From Candidatus Omnitrophota bacterium (GTDB lineage Bacteria; Omnitrophota; Gorgyraeia; Gygaellales; Profunditerraquicolaceae): 64,000 nucleotides of DNA. The first letter of the stretch is position 1; every line of letters begins with the position of its first letter. The stretch lies in the NCBI GenBank assembly GCA_042570405.1, contig JBHPGR010000004.1, forward strand, positions 4,474 to 68,473, read 5' to 3'. This document shows positions 2,334 through 49,697 of this stretch, one piece after another. A program made the position numbers and the translations under genes. The notes beneath the pieces are model-generated. The model searched no databases. It had not been told where the DNA came from and saw only the letters and a program-made list of their open reading frames with translations.

Positions 2334-2336
2334 TGA

Positions 2337-3059
2337 TTATCCAGGAACTACACAAAGTTTCTTTCTTATATCTTCCAGCTTCCCAAAACACACAAGTTTA
2401 TCACCTAAAACGACTTTCATATCAGCTGACGGATTTGGGATAGTTGTTTCTTTCCTCTCAATAACCAAAATCGTAATATCAAGATTGCGCAAGTTTGCTT
2501 CACGAAGGGTCTTATCCAATATGGGGCTATCTTTACAGACCTCAATGCTTGAGACACCGTATCCCCCGGTTGAGACTACCAATTCTTCAAAGGACACGGA
2601 TCTAATGATATCTTTCTTTATCAACCGCCCCCTTAAGCTACGAGACAACTTTTTAACAAATTTTGCATTTGTAAAAACTTTATAAGTTGCAAATACAAAA
2701 ATCACGATAATTATTAGATTTATCAGAGGTAATAACCGCGATGGAAAAACTAAATGCACAAAGGGGATAGTAAATTGAGGCATAATGATAGCTGGTCTCA
2801 ATGAATTAGCGAATGTTGCGATAAGAGTAACAAGGCCTGCATGGCCAAAAACTATAAGTACCGAGGCGATACGTCGTCTTTGGGGACTGCCGGTAATCAA
2901 CTCAGCCTCTTTTGTCGTGAATCCTGTTCCCGTAAAACAAGACAGAGCCTGGAATTTAGCCAAGGACCATTCAAGACCTGTCAATTCAAACGCAATTGCT
3001 CCAATCCTTACCGCTATAAATGAAACCACGAGCGCCATAATGAACAATAATATATTCAT
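2337..3059 (-). CDS. TrkA-C (RCK_C) domain-containing membrane protein, putative cation channel/transport protein
   Basis: N-terminal TM helices with a pore-like SCFTGTGFTT segment. The C-terminal VCKDSPILDKTLREANLRNLDITILVIER...GDKLVCFG resembles the TrkA-C fold. Confidence 0.5.
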   Translation of the reverse strand: MNILLFIMALVVSFIAVRIGAIAFELTGLEWSLAKFQALSCFTGTGFTTKEAELITGSPQRRRIASVLIVFGHAGLVTLIATFANSLRPAIIMPQFTIPFVHLVFPSRLLPLINLIIIVIFVFATYKVFTNAKFVKKLSRSLRGRLIKKDIIRSVSFEELVVSTGGYGVSSIEVCKDSPILDKTLREANLRNLDITILVIERKETTIPNPSADMKVVLGDKLVCFGKLEDIRKKLCVVPG

Positions 3060-3079
3060 ACAACCTCCTTAATTTTTCT

Positions 3080-3277
3080 TTATTCCGAGCCCTTCTTGAT
3101 AAAAGAAATAATTAAGCCTATAATCATACCGGTAAAGAGTGATGAAAATATAATAATCGCTCTGCTTGTTGCAAACGACCAGAATAAAAGTTGCACTTTC
3201 ACTGTATCATGGTTTTGCAATGTAAAAATAAGCAATAACAGCAATAATATAAGTACAACTATCCATTTCCAATTCAT
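3080..3277 (-). CDS. LapA-domain (DUF1049-like) small inner-membrane protein
   Basis: Sequence LQNHDTVKVQLLFWSFATSRAIIIFSSLFTGMIIG matches the LapA-domain pattern. I moved the start to the internal ATG (MNWKWIVV) because it is preceded by GGGGAGG. Confidence 0.55.
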   Translation of the reverse strand: MNWKWIVVLILLLLLLIFTLQNHDTVKVQLLFWSFATSRAIIIFSSLFTGMIIGLIISFIKKGSE

Positions 3278-3301
3278 TTTCACGCCTCCCCGCACTATGT
3301 C

Positions 3302-4384
3302 TTAAAACCACCGTTTCCTTTTAAAATAAATCACCATCGTCAATACGATACTAAGCATTACTCCCCATGCAAATATATAGCCGAATTTCCAGTTTAGTTC
3401 AGGCATGTTTAAAAAAGATACATTGGGATTGAAATTCATTCCATATATCCCTGCAATAAAGGTAATGGGAATAAATATTGTCGCAATTATAGTAAGCACT
3501 TTCATCACTTCGTTCATTCTATTACTTACACTTGAAAGATAGATGTCAAGTATTCCCGACACCATGTCCCTGAACGTTTCGATAGTATCGATTACCTGAA
3601 TGGTATGATCGTATACATCGCGCAAAAAGATATGAGTAGTCTTTTTGATTAATTTCGATTCTCCGCGTTCCATGCCACTAATAACTTCTCTCAAAGGCCA
3701 AACTGACTTACGCAGGAAAATAGTATCTCTTTTTAAAATGTGTATTATTTGCAAGGTTTGGGGAATGGGATTTTTCACTAATTCTTCTTCTATGCCTTCT
3801 ATCTTTTCTCCGAGTCTTTCAAGAATTAGAAAGTAATTATCTACAATAGCATCGATTAATGAATATGCAAGATAATCGGCTCCCATTTTTCTTATTCGAC
3901 CTTTGGCATTTTTAATCCGTTCTCTAATTGGATTAAAAACATCTCCTTCTTTTTCCTGAAAGGATATTACGAAATTATTACCAAAAAGTAGGCTAACCTG
4001 CTCTGCTTTTATTTCTTTATCTTTTTCATCAAAATAAAGCATTTTCAAAACAATAAAGATATGGTCTTCAAAATCTTCATATTTTGGACGCTGCCCGGTA
4101 TTGAGTATGTCTTCCAAAACAAGAGGGTGTATGTCAAACTTTTTACCAATTTTTTCGATAATTTCAATATTATGAAGACCGTCAACGTTTACCCATGTAA
4201 CTGTTGGCGTATCTTTAAAAGGGAAACAATCCTCTGCTGTCTTTGCCATCTTTTCTTGAAACTGGCTTTCATCATAGTCAATAATTGTAATTCTCACTTT
4301 CTCATCTCTTTTTTCCCCCACATGAACAAGGGCCCCTGGAGCAAAACCAGCTGTCTTTGACATTTTCTTAATAAGTTTCGACAT
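3302..4384 (-). CDS. corA: Magnesium/cobalt transporter CorA
   Basis: 360 aa with a soluble N-terminal domain and two C-terminal TM helices carrying the CorA signature YGMNF. Confidence 0.85.
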   Translation of the reverse strand: MSKLIKKMSKTAGFAPGALVHVGEKRDEKVRITIIDYDESQFQEKMAKTAEDCFPFKDTPTVTWVNVDGLHNIEIIEKIGKKFDIHPLVLEDILNTGQRPKYEDFEDHIFIVLKMLYFDEKDKEIKAEQVSLLFGNNFVISFQEKEGDVFNPIRERIKNAKGRIRKMGADYLAYSLIDAIVDNYFLILERLGEKIEGIEEELVKNPIPQTLQIIHILKRDTIFLRKSVWPLREVISGMERGESKLIKKTTHIFLRDVYDHTIQVIDTIETFRDMVSGILDIYLSSVSNRMNEVMKVLTIIATIFIPITFIAGIYGMNFNPNVSFLNMPELNWKFGYIFAWGVMLSIVLTMVIYFKRKRWF

Positions 4385-5778: not shown

Positions 5779-5827
5779 CATTATTATGTTAAAAGTTTTT
5801 TTACGATATACTTTTGACCTGATGGTA

Positions 5828-7633
5828 TTATAAATTTTTTATCGTTGAAGCGTCACTCCAGTTATAATTAGTTTCAAGAAGCAGGATCGTCTGTATTAAT
5901 GCCATATGCGAGTACCCCTGCGGAAAATTGCCCGTTAATCTGCCTGAATTTATTTCAATATCCTCTGCAAGCAGATTAAATCTGTTCAGGCAGCGCAAAA
6001 TGTTTGAGAGCATCTCTCTGCTCTTATCTTCTTCTCCGGTCAGATAAAGCGCATTTATCATCCAGAATGTGCAAACGATAAAAGCATTTTCCGGCCGGCC
6101 GAATCCGTCATCGCATAGATAACGGAAAGTAAAACCTTCTTTTGTCAATTCTTCATGTGTCCTACGCACAGTGTTTATCATCATCGGATCATCCCGGCTG
6201 AGAAATCCGTAATGAAGCATCAAAAGATTTGCTGCATCCAGCTCTGAAGAACCGTAATACATCACGAAAGACTTCCGCTTTTCATTCCAGCCGTTCTTAA
6301 GGATATCCTCCCTTATTTGCGAAGCTACTTTCTTCCACCTCTCCTCATTAGCGGGTTTTTTTATAAAAGTGGCTATTTTAGCGGCCCTGTCCATTGCAAC
6401 CCAGCTCATTAGCTTGGAGTGGACATAGTGCTCGGGGTTACCCCTGCGCTCCCATATCCCGTTATCCGGCTCCCTCCATTTCTTGATCACATTATTGGCA
6501 AGGTCTCTGACTACCGTCCATATCTCCTCGTCGATCACTGCGCTGCCCCTGCGGCTGACGATAAGGAATGTGTATATCGCCTCTATGAGATGGCCATAAA
6601 TGTCATTCTGTATCTGCTTATAGGCATTGTTGCCGATGCGTACCGGCTTAGAGCCCTGGTAACCTGCAAGATGGCCCAATATCTTTTCTTCCAACAATCT
6701 CTCACCGTTTATCCCGTACATGACAGAGATGTTTTCGTGTTTCAGTAATCTCCTGTTCAAGACAAAATTCATATAACGGCTTGCCGAACGCAAATGATTC
6801 ATCCTGGTGTAAAGATCCACGATCATTGAGGCATCGCGGATCCAGCAGTACCTGTAGTCCCAATTACGCTCTCTTCCTATGATCTCCGGCAGGGATGCCG
6901 TTGGCGCGGCGATAACAGCTCCTGAGCGCTGATATGTCAGCAGCTTTAGGGTTATAGCAGAGCGGATAAGCAGGTCTTTGTATCTGGAGGGGGCTCTTGT
7001 CCGGTATGCCCAGTCTAACCAGTATGTCTTCGTCTTTTCGTATTCGATGTATATTTTATCTGTATCGATGTCCTGTAATTTTTCATGGTAAGAAAAAAGG
7101 AGAAAGGAAGTACCCTTTAATTCGATAGGCTCGCCCCTGACTATTTTATTGACATCCAGATTACTGTATAAATAAAAACTTACATATTCCCCTGTCTTTG
7201 AGACGATCTTTAGAAGGTTTTGCTCAAATAAAAATTCCCCTTCGCTTGACGCATAGTTCGGCTTTGGTTTTAATTCGATTATTATCTTAGGGTTGCCGGA
7301 AATAAGAAGTATATCCCGATGCACTTCAGGAGGACAATAATATTCCTCCCGCGAAGTAAGAAAGCGAGGCATATAATCCCTTACTTCAAAAACCCCCTCT
7401 TTAGTCGTAAATACCGTCCTCAGTATCGGGGTATGGACCACATAATTCTGCTCTATCTTTATTATTTTCTCAGCGGATATCTTAAAATGCCCCCCGATAC
7501 CCGTATCCAGCATCTTTGCAAAAACCGAAGGCGAATCAAAAAAGGGAAGGCAAAGCCAATCAATGCTGCACTCCGATGAAATCAATGCTGCGCTGGTGCA
7601 GTTTCCTATAACCGCGTAATCATAATTTTTCAT
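5828..7633 (-). CDS. Glycoside hydrolase family 15 (glucoamylase/glucodextranase-like)
   Basis: 601 aa with GH15 catalytic-domain motifs NWDYRYCWIRDAS and EPDNGIWE. Confidence 0.85.
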   Translation of the reverse strand: MKNYDYAVIGNCTSAALISSECSIDWLCLPFFDSPSVFAKMLDTGIGGHFKISAEKIIKIEQNYVVHTPILRTVFTTKEGVFEVRDYMPRFLTSREEYYCPPEVHRDILLISGNPKIIIELKPKPNYASSEGEFLFEQNLLKIVSKTGEYVSFYLYSNLDVNKIVRGEPIELKGTSFLLFSYHEKLQDIDTDKIYIEYEKTKTYWLDWAYRTRAPSRYKDLLIRSAITLKLLTYQRSGAVIAAPTASLPEIIGRERNWDYRYCWIRDASMIVDLYTRMNHLRSASRYMNFVLNRRLLKHENISVMYGINGERLLEEKILGHLAGYQGSKPVRIGNNAYKQIQNDIYGHLIEAIYTFLIVSRRGSAVIDEEIWTVVRDLANNVIKKWREPDNGIWERRGNPEHYVHSKLMSWVAMDRAAKIATFIKKPANEERWKKVASQIREDILKNGWNEKRKSFVMYYGSSELDAANLLMLHYGFLSRDDPMMINTVRRTHEELTKEGFTFRYLCDDGFGRPENAFIVCTFWMINALYLTGEEDKSREMLSNILRCLNRFNLLAEDIEINSGRLTGNFPQGYSHMALIQTILLLETNYNWSDASTIKNL

Positions 7634-7657: not shown

Positions 7658-9064
7658 CTAGCCTGCCTTAAGATAGACCACCTCGTCCTTAGCGGGGATC
7701 TTTGGCTTTAGGTTAAGCTCGCGGCGCAGGTTCACCCTTAGCTCCTCTGCCTGCTCCGGCTCCCCATGTACGATAAAGACCTGCCTGAGCCCTTGCCGGA
7801 AACTACGGCAGTAATCTACAAGGCCGTTCTTATCCGCATGAGAGCTGAAAGCGTTGATCACCACTACTTCGGCGTTTAGATCATAAGGCCGGCCGAAGAT
7901 GCGTACCTGCCTGTTTTTCTCCACTATCCTTCTTCCCAGGGTATGCTTGGCCATAAAGCCGATGACGATGATAGCATTCTTCGGGTTTTCGATATTATTC
8001 TTAAGATGGTGCAGGATACGCCCGTTCTCGCACATCCCGGAGGCGGAGATTATTATTGCCGGCCTCGCGGAATCATTAAGCCTTTTTGATTCATCGGGAT
8101 TCTTTATGTAGGTTATATTATCGTAACCCAGGGGGTCGGTATGGTTAAGAAAGGCCGCCTGGGTGATATCGTCGAAATAATGGGCGTTATTCCGGAACAC
8201 CTCGGTGAGGTTGACGGCCAGGGGCCCGTCAACATAAATGGGAATCCTTTTAATCTTCTTTCTTTTTATCAGCTCGCTGATGAAAAAAACGATCAGCTGG
8301 GTCCTCTCCAGGGCAAAAGAGGGGATGATCACTTTACCCCCGCGCCTCTGCGTACGGTTGATCGCATCGGCAAGCTCCTTCTCAGCTTCTTTGATATCCG
8401 AATGCGCCCTTGAGCCGTATGTGCTCTCAATAATAAGATAATCGACATCCTCAGGGTTCTCGGGATCCCTTAATAAAGGCATGCCGAACCTTCCTAGATC
8501 GACCGCGTAGGCGATCCTTAAGTTGCCCTTTGCGGTCTTTATATCCAGCGCAGGGACCGTTGAGCCGAGGATATGGCCCGCTTCATAAAATGTAAGGAGT
8601 ATATCCTTGGCTATCTTAAACGGCTTGTGGTAATCTACCGGCCTGAAATATTTGAGGGATTTTTCCGCCTCAATTTTTGTATAAAGCGGTGAGCGCGGGG
8701 GGAGCCCTTTACGGCGGTTGATCTTATTTACGTATTTGACATCCTCTTCCTGGATATACCCCGAATCAGGAAGCATGTAATGGCAGAAATCCCGTGTTGT
8801 AGGGGTAGAGTAGATATTCGCCCGGAAGCCCTTCTTTATCAGCAAAGGGATATTCCCGCTATGGTCTATATGGGCATGCGAGAGGACGCAGGCATCAATT
8901 TTCTGGGGCACAAAAGAAAAATTCGAGTTCACCTCATAATATTCATCGCGCCGCCCCTGGAAAAGACCGCAATCCAGGATTATATCGGAGCGGTCCGTAG
9001 AGACCAGGTGCGTTGAGCCGGTCACTGTCCTGGCTGCTCCGCAGAATTTAATTGCCACAGTCAA
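7658..9064 (-). CDS. MBL-fold beta-CASP family RNA-metabolising hydrolase
   Basis: HAHIDHSG metallo-beta-lactamase motif, with beta-CASP-like motifs further on (ESTYG, SSHAD). Confidence 0.8.
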   Translation of the reverse strand: MTVAIKFCGAARTVTGSTHLVSTDRSDIILDCGLFQGRRDEYYEVNSNFSFVPQKIDACVLSHAHIDHSGNIPLLIKKGFRANIYSTPTTRDFCHYMLPDSGYIQEEDVKYVNKINRRKGLPPRSPLYTKIEAEKSLKYFRPVDYHKPFKIAKDILLTFYEAGHILGSTVPALDIKTAKGNLRIAYAVDLGRFGMPLLRDPENPEDVDYLIIESTYGSRAHSDIKEAEKELADAINRTQRRGGKVIIPSFALERTQLIVFFISELIKRKKIKRIPIYVDGPLAVNLTEVFRNNAHYFDDITQAAFLNHTDPLGYDNITYIKNPDESKRLNDSARPAIIISASGMCENGRILHHLKNNIENPKNAIIVIGFMAKHTLGRRIVEKNRQVRIFGRPYDLNAEVVVINAFSSHADKNGLVDYCRSFRQGLRQVFIVHGEPEQAEELRVNLRRELNLKPKIPAKDEVVYLKAG

Positions 9065-39605: not shown

Positions 39606-41384
39606 TCACCGCAACTGCGCCTCTTCTCTGCTAAAGATCCCCTCCTGGCCGCTGAAAAGCCGGCTAAATTCGCTGTTTTTCCCCTTTAGATCCTGCGGCT
39701 TACCCACGATCATCTCGCCCGGCCTGAAGAAGCAATAGGCCAGGCCTGCTTTCATCACCGTAGATAAGCGGTGGGATACGGTAATTAATGTTAGAGCTTC
39801 TTGCGAACTCTTTATATTGGAGATAATCTTCTCCTCGCTAGCAGAATCCATCGAAGACATCGCTTCATCAAGGATCAGGATCTTGGGCTGTTTGATCAGG
39901 GCGCGGGCGATGGCGATCTTCTGCTTCTGCCCTTCAGAGATCTTACAGGCATCTTCACCGATCACGGTCTGATAGCCTTGCGGCAGAATCCGGGTGAATT
40001 CATCTACGCCTGCTATCTCTGCTACCTTGAGTATCTCGTCTTTCGTGGCTCTGGGTTTGGCGTAGCTGATATTATTCTCTATAGTATCGTTCCACAGTAA
40101 TGCCTCCTGTAGGGCAAAGCCTATTTGGCCCTTTAGGCAACGAAACTTTAAATCCTTGATATTATGCCCGTCGATTAAAATCTCACCCTCCCAGGGGTCA
40201 TAGAGCCTGGCGATTAAATTCAAAAGCGTGGTCTTGCCGCAACCCGAAGGCCCGGCAATAGCAATATGGCTTCCTCCCTCAATAGAAAAAGACATCTTCT
40301 TTAAGATCAGTTCTTGGGGCTTATACCCGAAATTGACATTACTAAAGGATACCTGTCCTTTTGTAAAGAGTATATTTTTTGCTCCCTTTGCCTCTCTGAC
40401 CTTGGGCTTCTGGTCTAAAACCTCAGCAATCCTGCGGCAGGAGACCAAACCGATGGTAACGGTATGGAAGAAAGAGGCGAATTGGTTCTGCAGGCCGATT
40501 AACTGATACAAGTAAATCATAATCGCTGCCAGGCTGCCTATGGTTAGTTGCCCCTTGATCACCTGATATCCGCCGTAAAGGCTGAGCAGGCCGATAATCG
40601 CCTTGGTAGTTACTTGGATGATCGTCGAATTAATCATCCCCATCCTAACCGTCTTGACATTTATGCGTATATTTACAATTACCTTCTTAAGATACTCCCT
40701 GATACTACTGATCTCTTTTCCGAAGACCTTGATTAATTTGATGTGTGAAAGCGTCTCATCTAAATTAGTGAATATGCTCTCGGAATTTCTCAAAAGGCTC
40801 TCATAGACCTTTTTTATCTTTCGGCTAAAATAGTAAGGCGGGATATATAAAACCGGAGCCAGGCACAAGGCAACCAGAGCCATCCTCCACTGAAGATAAA
40901 ATACGATGACTAAAATAAAGAGCAACTTGGTGAATATAAAAAACGCCTGGGGCAAAGTATTAGTGATAAATCCGGTGATCGCGCTTAAATCGTTCTCTAT
41001 CTTATAGATCTGTTCTCCGGTGGATTGCTCGAGAAACCAACTAAAGGAGAGATTCTGGGTATGCTTAAACAACTTTTTCTGTAGGTCAAAATTTACCCTT
41101 CTTTTGATATACTGCTCTAAAAATTGCTTTGTCACCGCCAGCAGCTCGTTGATTAAAAAAATACCTCCTGCAATAAGGCCGAGTAAAATAAATCTTCTTA
41201 AGTCTTTATTCAGGAACCCTTGGTCAATCACGAGTTTGGTTAGATACGGATTAAGCAGGGCAAGCAGGGCCGTAGCATTACTTAAGATAATTATCACCAG
41301 CCACTTTTTGCGGTAGGGGAAAAGGTGCTTGAGAAACCTAAGGATCAAATTGATCTGCGCCTTAAACATCTGTTTTCTTTTCAA
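39606..41384 (-). CDS. ABC exporter, fused permease and ATPase (MsbA/bacteriocin-exporter type), no C39 peptidase domain
   Basis: Six TM helices, then Walker A GPSGCGKTT, signature ISEGQKQKIAIARAL and Walker B ILILDEA. Confidence 0.85.
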   Translation of the reverse strand: MKRKQMFKAQINLILRFLKHLFPYRKKWLVIIILSNATALLALLNPYLTKLVIDQGFLNKDLRRFILLGLIAGGIFLINELLAVTKQFLEQYIKRRVNFDLQKKLFKHTQNLSFSWFLEQSTGEQIYKIENDLSAITGFITNTLPQAFFIFTKLLFILVIVFYLQWRMALVALCLAPVLYIPPYYFSRKIKKVYESLLRNSESIFTNLDETLSHIKLIKVFGKEISSIREYLKKVIVNIRINVKTVRMGMINSTIIQVTTKAIIGLLSLYGGYQVIKGQLTIGSLAAIMIYLYQLIGLQNQFASFFHTVTIGLVSCRRIAEVLDQKPKVREAKGAKNILFTKGQVSFSNVNFGYKPQELILKKMSFSIEGGSHIAIAGPSGCGKTTLLNLIARLYDPWEGEILIDGHNIKDLKFRCLKGQIGFALQEALLWNDTIENNISYAKPRATKDEILKVAEIAGVDEFTRILPQGYQTVIGEDACKISEGQKQKIAIARALIKQPKILILDEAMSSMDSASEEKIISNIKSSQEALTLITVSHRLSTVMKAGLAYCFFRPGEMIVGKPQDLKGKNSEFSRLFSGQEGIFSREEAQLR

Positions 41385-42432
41385 TCATCCTCTGCAGCCG
41401 GGCCAATTCACAGTAATATTCTATGGGCTCCTCCTCTTTATCCTTCTCTAGATATGCCCTTCCCGGACACCAATTACATAATCTCTTTAGACTACAATCC
41501 CTGCATGCCGAATCGGTTAAAAAGCTCTTTTCTCTTACCTGAGATATTAATCCATCTAAAGCATATCCCAGATCCGTTTTAAGCAGATTAAAATCCGTTT
41601 TGCGCATCAGGTTGCAAAGGAAGATATTCCCCAAAGGGTCGATATGAAAACCATCCCCGCCTCCGATGGCGCAGGTAAATAAGTTAACGGTGGGGGGGTG
41701 GGGGTTGGAATCCTGTAATCGCCAATCATCGCAAGCTGATAGCCGTCTATCATCTGCGTCTAAACCCAAAATCTCTTTTGGTGAAATCCTTAAATTACAG
41801 GGAGTTTTGTCGCCGTTAAGCCGCGGATACAAAATATGGCTGGGCCTAAACTCTAAGCCTAAACCCTCGACAAGCTTCTTGATCTTAGTCAACTCTTCTA
41901 AATTATCCTTGGTGACCTGGGTCTTGATTTTCAAGGGGATTCTTTCTTTTATAAGCAAATTAATCCCCTTCATGAGCCTTAAAAAAGAACCTTTAACCCC
42001 GGAGATCTTCTCATATAGTTGCTCGGTAACCGCGTTCAAGGTCAGCTCAATCACAAAGGGAGGTTTGCTTTTCAAAAATTTAACTATTTTCTTATCTAAT
42101 AAATAGCCGCTGGTAAAGACACTGACAATAAAACCTTTTTGCTTAGCATAAGAATAGATCTCCAAGAAATCAGCCCGCGCCAGGGGATCCCCTCCGGTCA
42201 GGCAGAGCCAGATTACCCCGGCCTGATAAACCTTATCTAAAATAGTTTTTACTTCCTGAGTCTTAAGTTCTTCTTTAAAATAGGCAGGCTGATTATAGCA
42301 ACCTGTGTAGCAATGTCGGCAGTACAGGGGGCATCTAAAGGTCAGCTCAAACTGGCAGACATTGGATCTTTTGATGCGCAAGTTTTTCTTATGCGTCCTT
42401 AAACTAAAAATTCTATATTGGATTTCTTTCAT
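41362..42432 (-). CDS. Radical SAM/SPASM domain peptide-maturase-like enzyme (paralog 3)
   Basis: FRCPLYCRHCY is the CxxxCxxC motif and the C-terminal Cys cluster is CRDCSLKRLCNWCPGRA. Start moved to MKEIQY, which gives the same N-terminal length as the two paralogs and removes a 104-nt overlap. Confidence 0.8.
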   Translation of the reverse strand: MKEIQYRIFSLRTHKKNLRIKRSNVCQFELTFRCPLYCRHCYTGCYNQPAYFKEELKTQEVKTILDKVYQAGVIWLCLTGGDPLARADFLEIYSYAKQKGFIVSVFTSGYLLDKKIVKFLKSKPPFVIELTLNAVTEQLYEKISGVKGSFLRLMKGINLLIKERIPLKIKTQVTKDNLEELTKIKKLVEGLGLEFRPSHILYPRLNGDKTPCNLRISPKEILGLDADDRRLSACDDWRLQDSNPHPPTVNLFTCAIGGGDGFHIDPLGNIFLCNLMRKTDFNLLKTDLGYALDGLISQVREKSFLTDSACRDCSLKRLCNWCPGRAYLEKDKEEEPIEYYCELARLQRMIEKKTDV

Positions 42433-42445
42433 ATTCACAGGGCTT

Positions 42446-44065
42446 TTATAAAAGTGGCTTGCTTCTCGGGATGAGGTCCGGGGGTTGCTGGCCAACAATG
42501 TCAACAATTGTTCTATGTTTTTTAAAGGAATATTCAAGGATTTTATCATAAATTTTAAGCATCTTTATCGCTTTAGGTTTATCTATATTTCCCAGGGTAT
42601 GTTTAAACGGATAAAAAAATCTGAAGGGCAGTCTTTTATCATAAATAATCTCTATACCATAATTTCCCGGGTTTAAGAATGCGGGGTTTTTAGGGACCTG
42701 ATAATATACATTGAAGATGCCGCAATCTGTGTTTAGTGCTTTTGAATGGTTTGCCAGGAAAGAAATCGTATCAAATGCCTCTTCAACAGTTTCAGAGGGC
42801 AGGGCGATTATCGATTGAAAATAAACATTTAATTTCAAATTACGGCTATCTTTTATAATCCTTTTGATCACCTCTACCCTGGTTCCCTTGCCTATAAAAT
42901 CAAGGACCCTTTGGTTTATGGATTCCAAACCAAATCCCAGCATCGAACAGCCTGCCCGCTTGGCTAAGCTAAGGGTCTCTTTATCAAATCCATCGTCAAA
43001 ACGCGCCCAGGCCCACCAAGATAGCTTTATCTTTTCTTTTAAGATTTTCTTTGATATTTGCCTCATTTGTGATGGAGAAAATACGGCATTTGATATCATC
43101 AGATGTCTTATCCGATATTTTCTAATGAGTTTTTTTATATCTTTTATAACCAGGCCCGGCGATTTCTCCCTGTATCTTGATTTAGGCAGCGGCAAATCCA
43201 CGCAAAATATGCATTTATTCCAGTAACAACCGCGTGAAGTTTCAAAGGAAGCGGTTAGTTTTCTTTTTGAATTAAAGTATTTTCTAAGATTTAAGCCGTC
43301 GAAGTCCGGGGCGGGAAGCATGTCCATATCTTCTTGGGTGATTCTTGAGCTAAGCTTCCAACTCCCCTTATCTTGATAGATGAGATTTGGGACCCTGGAT
43401 AACGCCTTATTATTTCTAATCGCATTTATCAGCTTAAATAGCGGTGTTTCGCCTTCAAAATAAATAAGGTAGTCATAAAAACTATTAAAATCATTTCTTT
43501 TTTGAAGTTCTTCGCGATAGTAGGAAACCCACTGCCCTCCAATGACTATTTTTGTTTCGGGGAAATATTTCTTAATCAAATATCCGAAGGTGAAGCTCGC
43601 CATGACCTGAGAAGGGCAGATTATTGAAAATCCTATAAGAGAAAAATCTTGCTTTTTTATTTTTAGGAAAACCTGTTTATAAAAAAAATCAACAAAGGGG
43701 TTTTCTTTTTGATCAGCGATGTAACGATGCAGAAATTTTGCTGAAAGCATCATTTCCGTAAAGGCAAAAGACGAGCCCGGATTAACCTCGAAATCATAAT
43801 CAGACGAAATTTCTGCTCCTTTATATTGTAAGATTTTATGATAATAAACCTTTTTTTTAATTTTATTCTTCCTATATCCTGAAGTAAATATCTTCTCCAG
43901 CCTATTTTTTTTTATATAATCAAAATAACATATATTAAGATCGCCCTGCGCTACATTTATTCCTTTTGACTTTAAAAAACCGGCAAGGGCAGGAGTCCCT
44001 AAGGGCGGAACAGCTCTGTCGTAAGTAGGGGGAATAAATAGAGCTATTTTTTCTTCTTTGGCCAT
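42446..44065 (-). CDS. B12-binding domain radical SAM protein
   Basis: N-terminal Rossmann-like B12-binding region plus RGCYWNKCIFC (CxxxCxxC). Confidence 0.8.
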   Translation of the reverse strand: MAKEEKIALFIPPTYDRAVPPLGTPALAGFLKSKGINVAQGDLNICYFDYIKKNRLEKIFTSGYRKNKIKKKVYYHKILQYKGAEISSDYDFEVNPGSSFAFTEMMLSAKFLHRYIADQKENPFVDFFYKQVFLKIKKQDFSLIGFSIICPSQVMASFTFGYLIKKYFPETKIVIGGQWVSYYREELQKRNDFNSFYDYLIYFEGETPLFKLINAIRNNKALSRVPNLIYQDKGSWKLSSRITQEDMDMLPAPDFDGLNLRKYFNSKRKLTASFETSRGCYWNKCIFCVDLPLPKSRYREKSPGLVIKDIKKLIRKYRIRHLMISNAVFSPSQMRQISKKILKEKIKLSWWAWARFDDGFDKETLSLAKRAGCSMLGFGLESINQRVLDFIGKGTRVEVIKRIIKDSRNLKLNVYFQSIIALPSETVEEAFDTISFLANHSKALNTDCGIFNVYYQVPKNPAFLNPGNYGIEIIYDKRLPFRFFYPFKHTLGNIDKPKAIKMLKIYDKILEYSFKKHRTIVDIVGQQPPDLIPRSKPLL

Positions 44066-44075
44066 TATTTTCTTA

Positions 44076-45005
44076 TCAGAGCTTTCTTACAAAACTTATA
44101 ATCTTTTTATTATTCAGAAACCCCAGATTATAACAGTTTACTTCTTTAAGCAAATCCTGACAAAAGGAAACTATATTCTCTAAATTCTGCTTATCCCAGA
44201 AAGTAGGAAAAAGTGCAGGATAAAGCTGATTAAAGGCCGCTTTTTGAGAGATCTGTCTTGTATTATTATTTGGGGAGTGGTGAATAAAAAACAGTCTTTC
44301 AAGCGGGGCTGCCTCCATCTTTGAGTAAAGATAATCGCTGAAATCACCGTACCAGGGACAACCATAGATAAAATATCTGCCGTTAAGCCTGCGCACAATA
44401 ATCCGGTCGTCATTTAAGATCATTGCCCGGCTGAACCGGTTCCAGATCCTGGCAGTGGTAGATTTTCCTGCGCCGGATTTCCCGGCGAAGAGCAGGCCCC
44501 TGCCGTTAATATCTTTTAATCCTATCCCGTGCACAATGATCCCCTTTTTGTGCAGGGCTAAATAGCTGATTAAAAGCACCTGGATAAAATCATAAATCAG
44601 ATCATCCGGCCTCCAGGCCTTGCCTTTTTCATCCTTAGGTATAAGATAGGCAGTTACTCGGTCAAAATTTTTATTTACCAGCATCAGTTGTTGCTTGCTT
44701 TTTAAAGGACTTTTATAGATGTAGCTATCGCGTTTTTTAAGTAAGCGCCAGTTTTCGTTGCCGTCCTGAAAGTGTCGGGTAATGAATATCGGCTTTGCAT
44801 TCTGTACTTTGGGTAATTGATCCACTATCTTTACCTTGATTCTGATCTGCGGTCTTGCTCTGCCGTGATAGAAAAAGTTTTTAAAACGCTCGGGGATACG
44901 CTGCCTCTCTTCCTTTTTGGTGTAGGGCTTGAGCCTAAACTTACTTTGCATCCGGATGATGATATCGGAAATCTTCAGCCTCACTGTCACATTCTTCATT
45001 TTCAT
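44076..45005 (-). CDS. HPr kinase-related P-loop protein (HprK C-terminal-domain-like)
   Basis: GIIVHGIGLKDINGRGLLFAGKSGAGKSTTA. Start moved to MKMKNV because the 17 upstream codons in the track are the heptamer repeat array. Confidence 0.6.
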   Translation of the reverse strand: MKMKNVTVRLKISDIIIRMQSKFRLKPYTKKEERQRIPERFKNFFYHGRARPQIRIKVKIVDQLPKVQNAKPIFITRHFQDGNENWRLLKKRDSYIYKSPLKSKQQLMLVNKNFDRVTAYLIPKDEKGKAWRPDDLIYDFIQVLLISYLALHKKGIIVHGIGLKDINGRGLLFAGKSGAGKSTTARIWNRFSRAMILNDDRIIVRRLNGRYFIYGCPWYGDFSDYLYSKMEAAPLERLFFIHHSPNNNTRQISQKAAFNQLYPALFPTFWDKQNLENIVSFCQDLLKEVNCYNLGFLNNKKIISFVRKL

Positions 45006-45014
45006 ATGCCTTAT

Positions 45015-45045
45015 ACTTACGACTGAAAACTTACGACTTACGACT
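45015..45045. repeat. Heptamer array A (acttacg act gaaa acttacg acttacg act), solo arm
   Basis: Read directly from the sequence. It overlaps the last codons (SRKS*) of the 45031-46083 gene. Confidence 0.8.
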
Positions 45046-46083
45046 GAATAAGTCACTCACTAGCTGCGCCTTAGCGCGGCTCTCAGGTGCACAGGAAGTA
45101 AAGCTGCGGTTATAAAGCCAACTCCTTGCCGGGCAACGTTTACAATAAGCTTTCAGGCTGCAACTGCTGCATTGATAATCCTTATCTAGCGCGATACCTC
45201 TCTGGAATCTATTTAATCTCTGCCAGCATTCTTTTAAAGAAGACTCCAATATATTATATCTGGGATGATCGATCATCAGGCATAGCTTCAATTCTCCCTG
45301 AGGGGTAATTGCTGCCTGGGTCAAACCTGCCCCACAGGCAAATAGATTGCCGTTATTATTTTCGTAGCCTGTGATTTTTAAATCACAAGCGTCAGAAAAA
45401 TCCTCTTTCAGCCCTGATTGTTTTACCATTCTGGCTATAGTCTTGCCTCTATAACGATACGGCTCTTCAGAACCATCCAGGCGCCGGAAAAGTGAATCAT
45501 CCAATCGGTGCGGGGCGCCTAAGGAGGTAGAAAAATCTTCGATTTCTTTGATCTCGGATGCGTTATCTTTCAAGACGCAGGTCTTAAACCCTAAATTGAC
45601 CCTGTTTTTGTGTAAAATATCAATGGTTTTAAATACACGATTACGGGAACCTGCGACACCGCTAATACGTTCAAAACTCTTTTTTCTCATTGCCGGAATA
45701 GTAATATCCAGCTTATTTATTTTTAAGCGATGTAACTCTTGAGCGATCCCTTGATTAATCAGTGAGCCATTAGTATATACGATCATCTGGAAGCCCTTTT
45801 CTCTGGCATAGCGCAATATCTCTATTATATCATTTCTAATAAAGGGTTCGCCTCCGGTAAAACCTAAATAAAAACAACCTATATCTTTCAACTGGTCTAA
45901 AATAGAGAATATCTCCTTAGTCTTAAGTCCTCCTTTTCTTCTATAGCTTTGCGGCAGATAACAGTGTTTACACTTAAAATTACACCTGTAGGTGAGCTCA
46001 AACATTACCCGCAGCGGGAAGTTTTCTTCCTTTGCGGAATCGTGGATCTGCTTCCAGAAACTATTATACGATCGAGTTCTCAT
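45031..46083 (-). CDS. Radical SAM/SPASM domain peptide-maturase-like enzyme (paralog 2)
   Basis: YRCNFKCKHCY, and C-terminal CSSCSLKAYCKRCPARS. Confidence 0.8.
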   Translation of the reverse strand: MRTRSYNSFWKQIHDSAKEENFPLRVMFELTYRCNFKCKHCYLPQSYRRKGGLKTKEIFSILDQLKDIGCFYLGFTGGEPFIRNDIIEILRYAREKGFQMIVYTNGSLINQGIAQELHRLKINKLDITIPAMRKKSFERISGVAGSRNRVFKTIDILHKNRVNLGFKTCVLKDNASEIKEIEDFSTSLGAPHRLDDSLFRRLDGSEEPYRYRGKTIARMVKQSGLKEDFSDACDLKITGYENNNGNLFACGAGLTQAAITPQGELKLCLMIDHPRYNILESSLKECWQRLNRFQRGIALDKDYQCSSCSLKAYCKRCPARSWLYNRSFTSCAPESRAKAQLVSDLFSRKS

Positions 46084-46089
46084 TATTTT

Positions 46090-46120
46090 AGTCGTAAGTT
46101 ATAAGTCGTAAGTTGTAAGT
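46090..46120. repeat. Heptamer array B (agt cgtaagt tataagt cgtaagt tgtaagt), inverted partner of array C
   Basis: Read directly from the sequence. By hand alignment 27 of 31 positions match the reverse complement of 46471-46501. Confidence 0.85.
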
Positions 46121-46464
46121 TTCTTCTGAAATCCAAAAAGCATTCTTCCTATCTCATCGCACATCTCATTTAAGTTCTTGGAATCTCCTTCTTTAAGATA
46201 GCCTAAATCTTTGGCAAGCAGGATATGATATTTAGTCTCCTCTAAAGATCCGTCGGCTATACTGATAAAATATGCATACTCTTTTTTACTTTTCCTTTTA
46301 AAGCCTTCGACTACATTTGTCGGTATTGAGGCGGCTGACCTTCTTATGTTTGCTACAAGGCCGAATCTTTCTTCTCTTGGAAAATCTTTAGTGACTTTAT
46401 AAATCTCAAGAACCAATCCGTGTGCTTTTTGCCAAACCTTTAAATCCCTAAAAGTTTTTATCAT
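46099..46464 (-). CDS. Four-helix-bundle protein of the 23S rRNA intervening-sequence (IVS) protein family
   Basis: FRDLKVWQKAHGLVLEIYKVTKDFPREERFGLVANIRRSAASIPTNVVEGF.R.S.KEY..F..IA.GSL.E is the family signature. Confidence 0.8.
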   Translation of the reverse strand: MIKTFRDLKVWQKAHGLVLEIYKVTKDFPREERFGLVANIRRSAASIPTNVVEGFKRKSKKEYAYFISIADGSLEETKYHILLAKDLGYLKEGDSKNLNEMCDEIGRMLFGFQKKLTTYDL

Positions 46465-46470
46465 CTTTTT

Positions 46471-46501
46471 ACTTACGACTTACCACTTACGACTTACGAC
46501 T
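46471..46501. repeat. Heptamer array C (acttacg acttacc acttacg acttacg act), inverted partner of array B
   Basis: Read directly from the sequence. It overlaps the last codons (SRKS*) of the 46487-47560 gene. Confidence 0.85.
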
Positions 46502-47560
46502 CATCTCTTTAGCCGTCGCCTCAGCCAGCTGGCAATAATAGGGGACCGGCGCCTCTTGATCCCCAGTCTCTAGATACGCCCTTGCCGGGCAGTAATAACA
46601 GAGCGGCCGCAGGCGGCAGGTCCTGCATTTAGAATCAGTTTTAAAGCGCGCATTTAAAACTTGGGGAAATACCTTATAGAAGCCTTTTTTAAAGGATTGG
46701 ATCTTTAAATCAACGCTGAATCTATCGGATAAATCACAGAATCTTAACCGGCCGTAAGGATTGATAAAAAATTCCTGCCGCCAGGCAGTGCAGTTATAGA
46801 GGTAATCAGCTCTTCTTTTCAAGCGGGGAAACTTACAATCAAGGCTACTTTTATACTCCTCCCAAAAATCCGGGTCCTGCTTTTTTACTTTTAATATTTC
46901 GCTAAAGGACAGCCTGTAATTTGTAGGCGTTTTATCCCGGTTAAACTTAGGATAGATCAGCGGGTCGTATTTAAAATGATACTTGCCGTTTTGCTTACCT
47001 AAAAAATCATCAGCAAAGGCCTTGATCTTGCCGATCTCATGCTTGTTCTGCTTAAGGCAATTAGATTTCAGGATCAAAGGGAGTTTTTTCTCCTTTAAGG
47101 CCTGAATCGCCTTCATCGCTTTTAAAAAAGAGCCGGGAACCCGTGTAATCGATTCGTAGGTTTTTTTAGTGATACCATTTAAAGTGATCTCTATAGAAAA
47201 GGGGGGGAATTTTAGTAAAAAATCGATGACTTCGCTCGTCAATGCCTGAGCGTTAGTAAAAAGAGTGACCATAAAACCCTTTTTTTTGGCATAGGCATAA
47301 ATCTCTAAAAAATCATCTCTTACCAGCGGCTCTCCGCCGGTAAAGCATAAACTAAAGCATCCCTGTTTTTGCAGTAAATCAAGGATCCTTTTCCATTCGC
47401 TGGTACTTAATTCCTTTTCTTTTTCCTCCAGCCCTTTAGAATAGCAATGGATGCAGTTTAAGTTGCATCTATAGGTAAGCTCAATATGGCCGGAAAAAGG
47501 ATGGCTTTCTCTTTTATTCAGCAGCCGGTAAAAAAAACGGCCCGATTGTAGCTTTTTCAT
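46487..47560 (-). CDS. Radical SAM/SPASM domain peptide-maturase-like enzyme (paralog 1)
   Basis: YRCNLNCIHCY, and C-terminal CRTCRLRPLCYYCPARA. Confidence 0.8.
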   Translation of the reverse strand: MKKLQSGRFFYRLLNKRESHPFSGHIELTYRCNLNCIHCYSKGLEEKEKELSTSEWKRILDLLQKQGCFSLCFTGGEPLVRDDFLEIYAYAKKKGFMVTLFTNAQALTSEVIDFLLKFPPFSIEITLNGITKKTYESITRVPGSFLKAMKAIQALKEKKLPLILKSNCLKQNKHEIGKIKAFADDFLGKQNGKYHFKYDPLIYPKFNRDKTPTNYRLSFSEILKVKKQDPDFWEEYKSSLDCKFPRLKRRADYLYNCTAWRQEFFINPYGRLRFCDLSDRFSVDLKIQSFKKGFYKVFPQVLNARFKTDSKCRTCRLRPLCYYCPARAYLETGDQEAPVPYYCQLAEATAKEMSRKS

Positions 47561-47578
47561 TTCATACCGCTGATACTG

Positions 47579-47839
47579 CTAAGTTTGTGTCCCTGAGGAA
47601 ACTGCCAGATAGCCGACACTCCCTGAGCTGCCGCAGGCATCAATCAAGGTCCTCGCTGACTCCACACCAGGTTTTACAGCTTCCATACAATAAGTTGGTA
47701 AATTTAGAAATCTTCCTTTCCGGTTACCAGCCAGCCAAACCCAACCGTGATTTCCAAAACACTCACAGGCTAATACTGCCTGTTCAGGGTTAAGTCTTAT
47801 GCGGGCGATCTCTGGTCTAAATCTTGGTTTTCTTGGCAT
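47579..47839 (-). CDS. Candidate RiPP precursor peptide (86 aa, 4 Cys, Ser/Gly/Thr-rich C-terminal tail)
   Basis: It lies between the PqqD-like gene and the first SPASM maturase. It has a strong SD (AAGGAGGAGAA-ATG), no recognisable enzyme motifs, and the sequence MPRKPRFRPEIARIRLNPEQAVLACECFGNHGW...CGSSGSVGYLAVSSGTQT. Confidence 0.5.
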   Translation of the reverse strand: MPRKPRFRPEIARIRLNPEQAVLACECFGNHGWVWLAGNRKGRFLNLPTYCMEAVKPGVESARTLIDACGSSGSVGYLAVSSGTQT

Positions 47840-47856
47840 TTCTCCTCCTTTTTTTC

Positions 47857-47935
47857 AGTTGTAAGTCGTACGTCGTAAGTCGTAAGTAAAAGCAGATACA
47901 TACCACTTACGACTTACTACTTACCACTTACGACT
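47857..47935. repeat. Heptamer arrays D1/D2 forming a 31-bp imperfect hairpin with a 17-nt loop
   Basis: D1 is 47857-47887 (agt tgtaagt cgtacgt cgtaagt cgtaagt) and D2 is 47905-47935 (acttacg acttact acttacc acttacg act). 27 of 31 positions are complementary by hand alignment. Confidence 0.85.
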
Positions 47936-48216
47936 TAAACTACCGCTTTAATCTCTTTTAGGTCCTTAAGTAACTTTTCCAGCTCCTTATCCGCTTGCCT
48001 TGGCGTCGTGTCAAACTCCTTAAGCACCTGCTTCTTGACTTGGGATAGCGGTTTTTTCCCGTCAAACATCTCCCAGACGCGCGCTGCGACTTTATTCAGG
48101 GAATAGATACAGCTTATATCATCGGATGTCTTATAAATAGGCACCAGTATCCTTTCATCGCCGATTACGCGGGTGACCATATTAGGGTTTTTGCGAATTA
48201 CAGCACTTGCCTCCAT
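47935..48216 (-). CDS. PqqD-family peptide chaperone (RiPP recognition element)
   Basis: 93 aa with the PqqD pattern: RVIGDERILV...IYSLNKVAARVWEMFDGKKPLSQVKKQVLKEFD...ADKELEKLLKDL. Confidence 0.8.
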   Translation of the reverse strand: MEASAVIRKNPNMVTRVIGDERILVPIYKTSDDISCIYSLNKVAARVWEMFDGKKPLSQVKKQVLKEFDTTPRQADKELEKLLKDLKEIKAVV

Positions 48217-49697
48217 CAGTATTTACCTCCTTTCAGCTGTTTTTCCAAAATTAACATCTTCTTCTTAAGACTAATTAGCCTACTCTTCCCCTCTTGCTTT
48301 AAGTGTAATTTATTTAAGCGGTTTAATCGCCTTTTAAAGAATTTATAATGAATCCTTACATATTTGATCATTTCGTCTTTATCAGCAATCTTTCTGGAAA
48401 CCCGCAAAAGGCCGATCAGCGGTTCTAACGTGCCCCAACCTAATCTTAAGGTATCTTTGTAAAAAATAGCGGCTTGAGAAAATTCTCCCTCCTTTTCAAA
48501 AATTCTGCCTAAAAGATAGTAGCCTTCAGGGTCTAAAGGTACCCTTCGCCTGTAAGAAAGCAGCCTTTCTTTGGCGCTTTTAAAATCTCCTGAATTGAAT
48601 TCTGCCTTTGCCAGGTTGAATAAAACCTGCGGTTTTACTTTTTTAAATGCCCCATTATTACCGCAGTAGTTTAATGCTGAACCTAAGAGATTTTTTGCCT
48701 TCTTAAGTTCTCTTCTTCCTAAGGCAATCGTCCCTAAGCCTGAAAGCGCTCCGGGATTATTTTTATCTACCCTTAAAATCCGAAAGAACTCTTTTTGCGC
48801 CAAAGAAAACTTCCTGAGCGACAGATAAAGCGCTCCATAATTGTTATCCTGGCTGCGGTAGGCAGGGTTAAGCCTGGCGGCTTTCTGGTAGTAAGCCTTG
48901 CTTCCTGTTGATTCAAAGAGATTGAAATATTTTGCTGCGCGATGACTGATTGCAAGTCTGCCTTTGAATTTGGAGTGCGAGAAACAAGCAGCGACCTCAT
49001 CCCCTAGATACCTGTATTTCATCGGCGTGAAACCACCGTTGACTGAATAGGCGATGGTAGTAATCTTAGGGGATTTAATCTTTTTCTTGAGGATACTTGT
49101 TAAATCTTTTGGTGAAATCCAGACCCTTCTCTTGCTGATATTCCGGGTATTCTCTGCGCTCAAAAGGCTGTCAATCACTAGAAAATCAGTATCGATATCA
49201 AGGAGTACATCCCTGCCTAAAACTGGTAGACTATCCAGAGTGCAGACCACAAAATTCCTCCCCAGGCACCTCATAGAGATCGAATCATTACTACTTTCTT
49301 TTAAAATAACCTTGCCGTTATTCTGAGGCCTAGTTAATCTTTTTAGAGTATTTTTGATTATCTTCCGGGATTTTTTGAACTCCTTGGCGCCTCCGGGGAT
49401 AACCCAGTAAAAATTATTAACTATCCCCTCCTCCATCGCCGGGTAGATGTAATTGCCGATGTTAGTCTGTTTATTGAAATCCTTTTCGTAGTGTAAGAAA
49501 TTAAGCGAATGTTCTAATTTTGCCTTTAGCTCTTTAATACTTCTTGCTTCGCTGACAACCTTTTCTATTGGCCTGGCCGGATAAACCACAAAATCAATGT
49601 GGGCATCCAGGTGTACCAAATCTAACCCCAAAACCTTGTGTCTGCGCCAGATCTTTAGAACCTCATCGTGATCTTCTACCAGAAATACATTCTTCAT
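48216..49697 (-). CDS. UPF0489-like (arginase/deacetylase-fold-like) N-domain fused to TPR repeats
   Basis: N-terminal VFLVEDHDEVLKIWRR...LVHLDAHIDF resembles the UPF0489 signature. The C-terminal half has several TPR-like repeats (YYQKAARLNPAY, ALYLSLRKFSLAQKEF, LLGRIFEKEGEFSQAAIFYKDTL). Confidence 0.45.
   Translation of the reverse strand: MKNVFLVEDHDEVLKIWRRHKVLGLDLVHLDAHIDFVVYPARPIEKVVSEARSIKELKAKLEHSLNFLHYEKDFNKQTNIGNYIYPAMEEGIVNNFYWVIPGGAKEFKKSRKIIKNTLKRLTRPQNNGKVILKESSNDSISMRCLGRNFVVCTLDSLPVLGRDVLLDIDTDFLVIDSLLSAENTRNISKRRVWISPKDLTSILKKKIKSPKITTIAYSVNGGFTPMKYRYLGDEVAACFSHSKFKGRLAISHRAAKYFNLFESTGSKAYYQKAARLNPAYRSQDNNYGALYLSLRKFSLAQKEFFRILRVDKNNPGALSGLGTIALGRRELKKAKNLLGSALNYCGNNGAFKKVKPQVLFNLAKAEFNSGDFKSAKERLLSYRRRVPLDPEGYYLLGRIFEKEGEFSQAAIFYKDTLRLGWGTLEPLIGLLRVSRKIADKDEMIKYVRIHYKFFKRRLNRLNKLHLKQEGKSRLISLKKKMLILEKQLKGGKY

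Follow-up and report, generated by a model that had tools for sequence, protein, structure and literature searches.

The question raised by this locus is why a long RNA hairpin should stand directly in front of the gene for a peptide precursor. The locus lies in a stretch of 64,000 nucleotides from a Candidatus Omnitrophota bacterium (Gorgyraeia; Gygaellales; Profunditerraquicolaceae; assembly GCA_042570405.1, contig JBHPGR010000004.1, positions 4,474 to 68,473), hereafter called the window. The hairpin, at positions 47857-47935 of the window, separates a PqqD-family gene from a putative precursor of a ribosomally synthesized and post-translationally modified peptide (RiPP). Further along the same transcript, at 46090-46501, a gene for a four-helix bundle (4HB) protein is enclosed by a pair of inverted heptamer arrays, which we refer to as the occupied cassette. 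The original prediction left two possibilities for the hairpin, an unoccupied or excised site of this cassette, or a deliberate RNA element that processes or stabilizes the precursor transcript. From the comparison of sequences we favor, with a probability of about 0.7, the interpretation that the hairpin is a cargo-less and dispensable copy of a heptamer-array element resembling the intervening sequences (IVSs) of ribosomal RNA genes, gained or retained in some lineages only. It was probably not made as a regulator.

Structure and Folding of the Hairpin

The two arms of the hairpin, arrays D1 (47857-47887, AGTTGTAAGTCGTACGTCGTAAGTCGTAAGT on the plus strand) and D2 (47905-47935, ACTTACGACTTACTACTTACCACTTACGACT on the plus strand), are inverted tandem arrays of the unit AGTCGTA, each 31 nt long and separated by a gap of 17 nt, and pairing by hand gives 27 complementary positions out of 31. 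An inverted-repeat search returned arms of 35 nt with a complementarity of 86%. In the 5' arm, the mismatched positions are 4, 11, 15 and 18, and all but one of them coincide with the variable fourth base of AGTNGTA; read unit by unit, the arrays vary mainly at this one position, and the core GTAAGT is kept despite the stem mismatches that result. Tandem Repeats Finder (TRF) assigned 4.4 copies of period 7 to D1 and 5.3 to D2, the higher number because an extra degenerate unit at 47898-47904 permits a second register with a loop of 8 nt. The original prediction had described D1 and D2 as sharing the 31-nt heptamer design and the orientation of arrays B and C, the arms of the occupied cassette, and both the sequence and the TRF output agree. 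Its spacing and pairing counts were reproduced, and the coordinates bear out its statement that the hairpin extends from the PqqD stop codon to just ahead of the Shine-Dalgarno sequence of the precursor gene.

Five such arrays (A, B, C, D1 and D2), each of about 31 nt and about 4.4 units of AGTCGTA (ACTTACG on the other strand), lie within 3 kb. Direct-repeat and inverted-pair searches placed the hairpin arms in the same repeat family as arms B and C, and a search of the whole window with the 16-mer GTCGTAAGTCGTAAGT, allowing up to 3 mismatches, yielded 16 matches in 64 kb, compared with 0.15 expected, all of which were located within the five arrays.

Folding of the RNA, a check suggested by the original prediction, gave a strong stem in the sense transcript (-36.8 kcal/mol, z = -5.45), with the Shine-Dalgarno sequence of the precursor gene left unpaired in the predicted fold. 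The antisense RNA folds to -33.3 kcal/mol (z = -6.8), and the DNA strand is comparable. Because TAA recurs every 7 nt in the first arm, this arm contains stop codons in all three frames. No terminator was identified in a scan of 47857-47937; the sense stem is followed by GAAAAAAAGG without a run of U, and the sole T-run on the plus strand precedes the stem. Likewise, no promoter was found in a scan of the hairpin site, and an Rfam search gave no family at the site and no rRNA match nearby. Inspected by eye, the 17-nt loop contains no recognizable remnant of the start or end of a 4HB gene.

The Junction in Homologous Clusters

The junction between the PqqD gene and the precursor gene was compared in eight lineages of the homologous RiPP cluster, the window counting as one of these (other loci are given by L numbers, and identities refer to the radical SAM protein of the window). 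In the window, the hairpin inserts 78 nt precisely between the TAA of PqqD and GAAAAAAAGGAGG, so that the junction reads GTTTAA, hairpin, GAAAAAAAGGAGGAGAAATG, and the spacer comes to 95 nt, compared with 1-17 nt in most relatives. The closest orthologue (L170/171, 76%), which has the same upstream HD/AAA synteny, has a spacer of 17 nt that reads GCATAA-TCAAAAAAGGAGGCCATATG, and the equivalent of the Shine-Dalgarno sequence, AAAAAAGGAGG, follows directly after its PqqD stop codon. The spacer is 14 nt in L175 (68%), 1 nt in L159/160 and L162/163 (60-61%) and 35 nt in L161 (61%), and it is taken up by a 1.7-kb AbiEi/AbiEii insertion (1925-3617) in L176 (64%). No heptamer array is present at this junction in six of the eight lineages, that is, in the five with 1-35 nt and the one with the AbiE genes. 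L172-174 (71%) carries a decayed copy, TGA-t-AGTCGTAAGTGG-18 nt-TTACAACTTATAACTTACGACT-gaagagaaaGGAG, in which the 5' arm is reduced to 12 nt. The absence in most lineages and the decay in L172 imply that the hairpin is dispensable for the cluster. The original prediction had itself tied its idea of an element serving the precursor to conservation among relatives; with the hairpin missing from six of eight lineages, the closest orthologue included, decayed in another and devoid of a terminator-like tail, we do not uphold this idea.

Another difference between the window and L170 is located further downstream. At 7050-7100 in L170, a two-unit remnant, GTAAGTGGTAAGTC, lies between a radical SAM stop codon and the ScmC start, and neither the 4HB gene nor the second of the radical SAM genes is present. 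We infer that this layout is what would be expected if arrays C and A, which share an orientation, had recombined. In L172 (6140-6204), a nine-unit TAAGTCG array was observed in frame inside a radical SAM gene, just past the CxxxCxxC motif, where it adds about 20 residues; one unit has TAT instead of TAA, which removes an in-frame stop codon.

Mobilization in the manner of repetitive extragenic palindromes (REPs) and REP-associated tyrosine transposases, or of the IS200 type, was considered and rejected, since the Y1 transposase in L172 (8845-9306, between radical SAM genes) is flanked by unrelated GC-rich hairpins and not by heptamers. Including this IS200-type transposase and the AbiE genes in L176, the spacers of this cluster family draw several kinds of selfish inserts. 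We also noted that gyrB and gyrA, which lie beside the homologous cluster in L161 (1-4559), both contain inteins (Intein_splicing, LAGLIDADG_3).

Heptamer Arms and Gene-Less Hairpins Across Phyla

We examined the flanks of 39 4HB genes; 38 loci that encode relatives of the window's 4HB protein were fetched, from the Omnitrophota, Auribacterota, Patescibacteria, Bacteroidota, Acidobacteriota, Planctomycetota, Chlorobiota, Proteobacteria and others. Complementary flanking arms with a score of at least 12 were present at 32 of the 39 genes, and nearly all outscored every one of 30 shuffles. These arms consist of inverted tandem 6-9-mers, mostly heptamers, and the unit changes from one lineage to another, as in AAGGATT/AATCCTT, GGGATAA/TTATCCC, TAAGATT/AATCTTA and GGTTGTC/GACAACC. 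The distances between paired arrays fall into two groups, about 350-470 nt with an open reading frame (ORF) and less than 25 nt without one. Stop triplets were more frequent in the first arm than in the second in 18 cassettes, compared with 7 for the opposite (p = 0.04), a modest trend across the phyla that is clear for the AGTCGTA family.

Arrays of the AGTCGTA family also flank 4HB genes in L002, L003, L164 and L168, and an array length of 4.4 units, which makes five cores, is common to the window and to L002, L164 and L168. Genes for 4HB homologues with 74-80% identity are found on the host strand in three unrelated operons, where they separate exbB from exbD in L164, a tRNA synthetase gene from macB in L168, and cheB, cheA and cheC from one another in L169. 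L164 and L168 share the 31-nt AGTCGTA arrays of the window, and the two copies in L169 have related heptamers (AGTCGTA-like and AGTCGTG/AGTCTTG).

Gene-less hairpins with the layout seen in the window, namely stop codon, arm, short loop, arm, Shine-Dalgarno sequence and ATG, recur in L169, L001, L164 and L033. The four in L169 (3413-3500, 4812-4903, 5389-5438 and 15510-15620) are followed by an A-rich/Shine-Dalgarno segment and then ATG. A solo array was found in L168 (6456-6487), and metagenome contigs in which hairpins of this layout, gene-less and from the GTAAGT family, separate genes of the same direction include L048, L057, L061, L079 and L130. A metagenome scan with GTAAGTNRTAAGTNRTAAGTNRTAAGT gave 120 loci, which are not a census since most are unrelated-looking microsatellites, some beside CCCTAA-type telomere-like repeats; a partner arm was present at only about 16 of the 120. 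Among the GTAAGT-family pairs in this sample, about 10 loci have loops of 7-48 nt, compared with 2 that have loops of about 385-416 nt. In many genomes, versions with and without a gene are present together. The common repeat family, the coexistence of both forms and the differences between orthologous clusters support the kinship with the occupied cassette and the history of gain or loss that had been proposed for the hairpin.

Cassettes at different stages were also encountered. In the che operon of L169 (4058-4386), a frameshifted 4HB pseudogene in which RRSSRSVCANLAEGW is still present lies between inverted GACGAGA/TCGTCTA arrays, which shows that the cargo decays in place. A PDDEXK_3 (PF13366) gene in the same locus (5820-6410) is placed between inverted tandem 8-9-mers (gacgcggat.../...atccgcg), which suggests PDDEXK_3 proteins as a second type of cargo for repeat-armed cassettes. 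Yet another array is located within cheA (8720-8770). L001 has two gene-less hairpins with the units AGCAGTA/GCTTACA (1527-1612) and AATAAGC/GCTTATC (3358-3437), at most 2.5 kb from a 4HB cassette armed with AAGGATT. The 4HB protein in L001 is 72% identical to that of the window and yet flanked by a different heptamer, so that arm sequence and cargo are only loosely linked.

The RiPP Cluster and Its Arrays

From 39.6 to 53 kb all genes in the window are on the minus strand. In transcript order, a gene for an FlmR/OhkR-like TPR protein is followed by PqqD, the hairpin, the 86-aa ORF, the radical SAM gene at 46487-47560, array C, the 4HB gene, array B, the radical SAM/SPASM gene at 45031-46083 with array A after it, a ScmC/HprK-like gene, a further pair of radical SAM genes and the gene for an ABC exporter (Table 1).

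Table 1. Coordinates of the hairpin, the heptamer arrays and the adjoining genes in the window.
Feature	Position	Strand	Description	Basis
5' arm of hairpin in transcript (array D2)	47905..47937	-	units AGTCGTA, AGTGGTA, AGTAGTA, AGTCGTA and AGT; overlaps PqqD stop codon 47935-47937; degenerate unit extends to 47898	
Hairpin loop	47888..47904	-	17 nt, GGUAUGUAUCUGCUUUU; first 7 nt are a degenerate further unit	sequence, fold
3' arm of hairpin in transcript (array D1)	47857..47887	-	units ACTTACG, ACTTACG, ACGTACG, ACTTACA and ACT; no stop codons	sequence, TRF, fold
PqqD-family RiPP recognition protein	47935..48216	-	stop codon 47935-47937 abuts first repeat unit	profile matches
Shine-Dalgarno sequence of precursor gene	47842..47848	-	GGAGGAG, 8 nt 3' of stem, unpaired in predicted fold	sequence, fold
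Putative RiPP precursor, 86 aa	47579..47839	-	ATG 47837-47839; leader MPRKPKFRP..KLNPEQAVLAC.C, Cys-containing core	ORF, family alignment
Array C	46471..46501	-	5' arm of occupied cassette; encodes SRKS-stop end of radical SAM gene 46487-47560	TRF, repeat search
4HB cargo gene	46099..46464	-	PF05635 23S_rRNA_IVP, TIGR02436, bAvd-like; 121 aa	profile, E = 2.8e-40
Array B	46090..46120	-	3' arm of occupied cassette; encodes 4HB C-terminus TTYDL-stop	TRF, repeat search
Array A	45015..45045	-	solo 5'-type, without local partner arm; encodes SRKS-stop of radical SAM/SPASM gene 45031-46083	TRF, repeat search

The ORFs for PqqD and the two radical SAM proteins all terminate within an array or at its edge, and both radical SAM proteins have SRKS as their last residues. 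Repeat insertions have rewritten three C-termini, two in radical SAM proteins (45031-45045 and 46487-46501) and one in the 4HB protein. Array A, of which the original prediction made no use, ends 9 nt ahead of the ATG of the ScmC/HprK-like gene, and an ORF listed with a GTG start at 44076-45056 is an over-extension through this array (MTYSVVSRKFSVVS...).

The 86-aa ORF is a plausible RiPP precursor, given that the leader is invariant among the 13 members of its family and the Cys-containing core hypervariable; an exact-sequence look-up of the protein matched no record. The cluster (41362-49697; cf. L159, L170 and L172) belongs to a large Omnitrophota family, for which 816 radical SAM homologues were retrieved at E <= 1e-40. 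ScmC/D/E/F-like matches give it a resemblance to the SynChlorMet cassette, and the TPR protein is of the FlmR/OhkR type and peptide-arginase-like. No transposase was found among the profile matches in the cluster.

An exact-sequence look-up of the 4HB protein of the window gave no record; the homologue search returned more than 1000 close homologues, and an identical protein is on record from a Candidatus Omnitrophota metagenome-assembled genome. Its closest solved structure is Xanthomonas XCC0516 (PDB 2gsc, E = 2.2e-20), which is described as a homopentamer (PMC4990558). PADLOC returned no defense model for the protein.

Relationship to Known Elements

The occupied form of the element is most similar to the ORF-containing IVSs in the 23S rRNA genes of Leptospira, Coxiella burnetii and the Xanthomonas type, in which terminal inverted repeats that pair into a stem of about 28-31 bp enclose a PF05635 ORF. 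The 28-bp terminal stem in Coxiella contains tandem GACAGAT heptamers in a copy number that varies with the strain, RNase III cleaves at the first heptamer repeat, and the ORF is decaying (PMC4990558), as it also does in the heptamer-armed 4HB cassettes. However, the 23S IVSs are located at the tips of rRNA helices, whereas the hairpin in the window is located in the spacer of a protein-coding operon and has no ORF in its 17-nt loop, and it is for these reasons not an IVS in the strict sense. Short stem-loops without an ORF are also known from rRNA, such as the helix-25 and helix-45 IVSs of Salmonella. In the Candidate Phyla Radiation, rRNA genes carry ORF-containing and ORF-less insertions at shared sites (bioRxiv 10.1101/2024.02.27.582315). 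The hairpin resembles these ORF-less IVSs in being a short, cargo-free extended stem-loop that has comparable sites in common with ORF-carrying versions, but its host RNA is an mRNA.

The second group of similar elements are the intergenic heptamer arrays, including GGGAATC in Xanthomonas, the short tandemly repeated repetitive sequences (STRR/GGGGATT) in cyanobacteria and TAACTGA in the Beggiatoaceae, with which the hairpin shares the 7-nt unit, the preference for about 4 units and the intergenic location as solo or convergent arrays. The Xanthomonas arrays, which are transcribed, favor 4 units; they are situated between aligned ORFs, extend over stop codons and form 70-75 inverted pairs per genome (PMC4692102). 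The hairpin, a convergent pair of about 4 heptamer units between ORFs of the same direction that touches the upstream stop codon, agrees with this type (Rehm et al. 2015) in every feature tested except the G-tract: AGTCGTA contains no GGG run and so lacks the potential for G-quadruplexes, for which the G-rich units of the Xanthomonas/Nostoc subclass have been studied. The arrays in the Beggiatoaceae lie upstream of start codons and carry stop codons in all three frames, and MacGregor proposed a regulator that binds the repeats (PMC4679880). Nearly all of these arrays are solo, in contrast to the pair in the hairpin. A link to 4HB/S23p proteins is not mentioned in either of these papers (PMC4692102, PMC4679880). 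Conversely, 23S_rRNA_IVP genes between the cas genes cmr3 and cmr2 were noticed earlier, with the repeats left unmentioned (PMC3936711).

As a dispersed intergenic inverted repeat that folds in mRNA, the hairpin is also comparable to the Correia elements (CREE), the enterobacterial repetitive intergenic consensus (ERIC) sequences, REPs and bacterial interspersed mosaic elements (BIMEs), and the miniature transposable elements with inverted repeats (MITEs). Correia hairpins in Neisseria are bound by RNase III, which cleaves them or protects them, and they alter the expression of neighboring genes (PMC2649163). The hairpin differs from MITEs, REPs and Correia elements in that its arms are tandem heptamers rather than unique terminal inverted repeats and in that it has no target-site duplication, no integration host factor site and no known transposase partner; moreover, the full-length form carries a 4HB gene and not a transposase gene. 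With its tandem-repeat arms and no target-site duplication, it is not a MITE or a REP.

Stem-loops that adjoin a precursor gene are familiar from polycistronic biosynthetic operons for RiPPs, and in this respect the hairpin is like an attenuator. The usual RiPP attenuator, as in the lantibiotic operons, lies downstream of the precursor gene, is a leaky terminator and is conserved with its operon, whereas the hairpin lies upstream without a U-tail, and most of the homologous clusters lack it.

Alternative Explanations

Several observations weigh against the interpretation of the hairpin as a dispensable, cargo-less element. One gain and one loss are as parsimonious as two gains on the tree ((window, L170), L172). 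Neither mobility machinery nor a target-site duplication nor a pair of near-identical filled and empty alleles was found, and no direct repeat flanks the hairpin when it is judged against the empty junction in L170, so that the term insertion rests on clusters that are 60-76% identical. The positions that deviate from Watson-Crick pairing in the 32 cassette stems are G.U in 42 cases and A.C in 55 on the sense strand; with no excess of G.U and with both strands folding alike, there is no sign of selection on the sense RNA. Finally, the strict length of 31 nt and 4.4 units across genomes is a poor fit to a purely neutral element. In another explanation, the five AGT/TAAGT cores at a spacing of 7 nt would form a site for the pentameric 4HB protein of the adjoining cassette, in which case the gene-less hairpins and solo arrays would be the trans-acting sites of a 4HB network at the post-transcriptional or DNA level. 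The 4HB relatives are homopentameric, as in XCC0516 (2gsc; PMC4990558), bAvd-like profiles match the protein in the window, the variation is concentrated at one position of the unit with the GTAAGT core preserved even where this leaves the stem mismatched, the fixed length recurs in L002, L164 and L168, with Xanthomonas arrays favoring 4 units, and a regulator of this kind was proposed by MacGregor for the TAACTGA arrays (PMC4679880). However, the arrays in other lineages span from 3 to more than 30 units, several different heptamers in a single locus (L001, L164) would require several cognate proteins, and a 72%-identical 4HB protein in L001 is flanked by a different heptamer, all of which makes a protein-binding array improbable as the explanation of the hairpin.

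A history in which a full 4HB cassette once occupied this very junction and lost its ORF by deletion between the arms is doubtful, but it has several points in its favor. Palindromic and tandemly repeated DNA is prone to deletion, the frameshifted 4HB gene between intact arrays in L169 is a case of cargo decay in place, the hairpin at the same junction in L172 has decayed further, and L170 resembles the outcome of a deletion between arrays C and A. Against this stand the loop without a recognizable 4HB remnant and the numerical dominance of gene-less over filled hairpins in the metagenome sample (about 10 versus 2 loci), which need not each reflect a local loss. The idea that the hairpin was recruited to process or stabilize the transcript of the precursor and radical SAM genes independently of the upstream tailoring genes draws on the strength of the stem, on its position directly 5' of the free Shine-Dalgarno sequence and on the effects of Correia hairpins on the expression of their neighbors (PMC2649163). 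We consider it unlikely, because the closest orthologue and five more lineages lack the hairpin and L172 has a decayed copy, because identical modules occur in unrelated operons, and because no hairpin or terminator follows the precursor gene and the sense strand shows no wobble-pair signature. Least probable by far is an intrinsic terminator or attenuator, or a repeat that arose by chance through replication slippage and has no relation to the cassette. The hairpin is indeed an intergenic stem-loop, and slippage can generate tandem repeats, but there is no U-run after the sense stem and the terminator scan was negative, five arrays of one rare heptamer cluster within 3 kb, and the same design is found in other genomes, so that this explanation is already contradicted by the data.

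A Hypothetical Mode of Action and Its Implications

The sequence shows the element to be a self-contained spacer module that can be tolerated between genes: the first arm stops the upstream ORF, the two arms make up the stem, and the native A-rich segment, Shine-Dalgarno sequence and ATG are left free. In the polycistronic mRNA, RNase III might cut this long imperfect duplex and separate the upstream and downstream halves of the transcript. Its likeness to the IVS and Correia stems makes the 27-pair stem over 31 positions a plausible RNase III substrate. Any change in the level of the precursor would then be a by-product, not the cause of the existence of the hairpin, and the arrays may in addition serve as substrates for recombination within the cluster.

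Within the incomplete coverage of the literature, the connection between heptamer repeats and 4HB proteins seems to be under-described, and among the consulted papers on IVSs and 4HB proteins the Coxiella study is the only one to note heptamers. A far-reaching hypothesis is that heptamer arrays and PF05635 proteins form one system, in which the pentamer recognizes five cores at 7-nt spacing on single-stranded RNA or DNA. We regard this as a long shot. The arrays with cargo would then be the autonomous form, and the gene-less hairpins and solo arrays would be dispersed predicted binding sites. If so, the heptamers of Xanthomonas, the cyanobacteria, the Beggiatoaceae, the Bacteroidota and the Omnitrophota and the ORF-containing rRNA IVSs would all be one protein-guided element that spreads in transcribed regions, possibly via an RNA intermediate given the kinship of the 4HB proteins with Avd, the accessory protein of diversity-generating retroelements, and the RiPP precursor in the window would be under the control of a 4HB protein.

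The interpretation favored here joins two literatures that apparently do not cite each other, on the 30-year puzzle of the rRNA IVSs with their 4HB proteins, and on the over-representation of tandem heptamers between genes. If the link holds genome-wide, both puzzles could be tested by experiments on the binding of the protein to the repeats, on cutting by RNase III and on the origin of the copies. For the locus itself, the tempting story of regulation is not supported, and related clusters manage without the hairpin, which is an addition. For the annotation of genomes from uncultured phyla, such modules would add residues to the C-termini of proteins, split operons and promote deletions.

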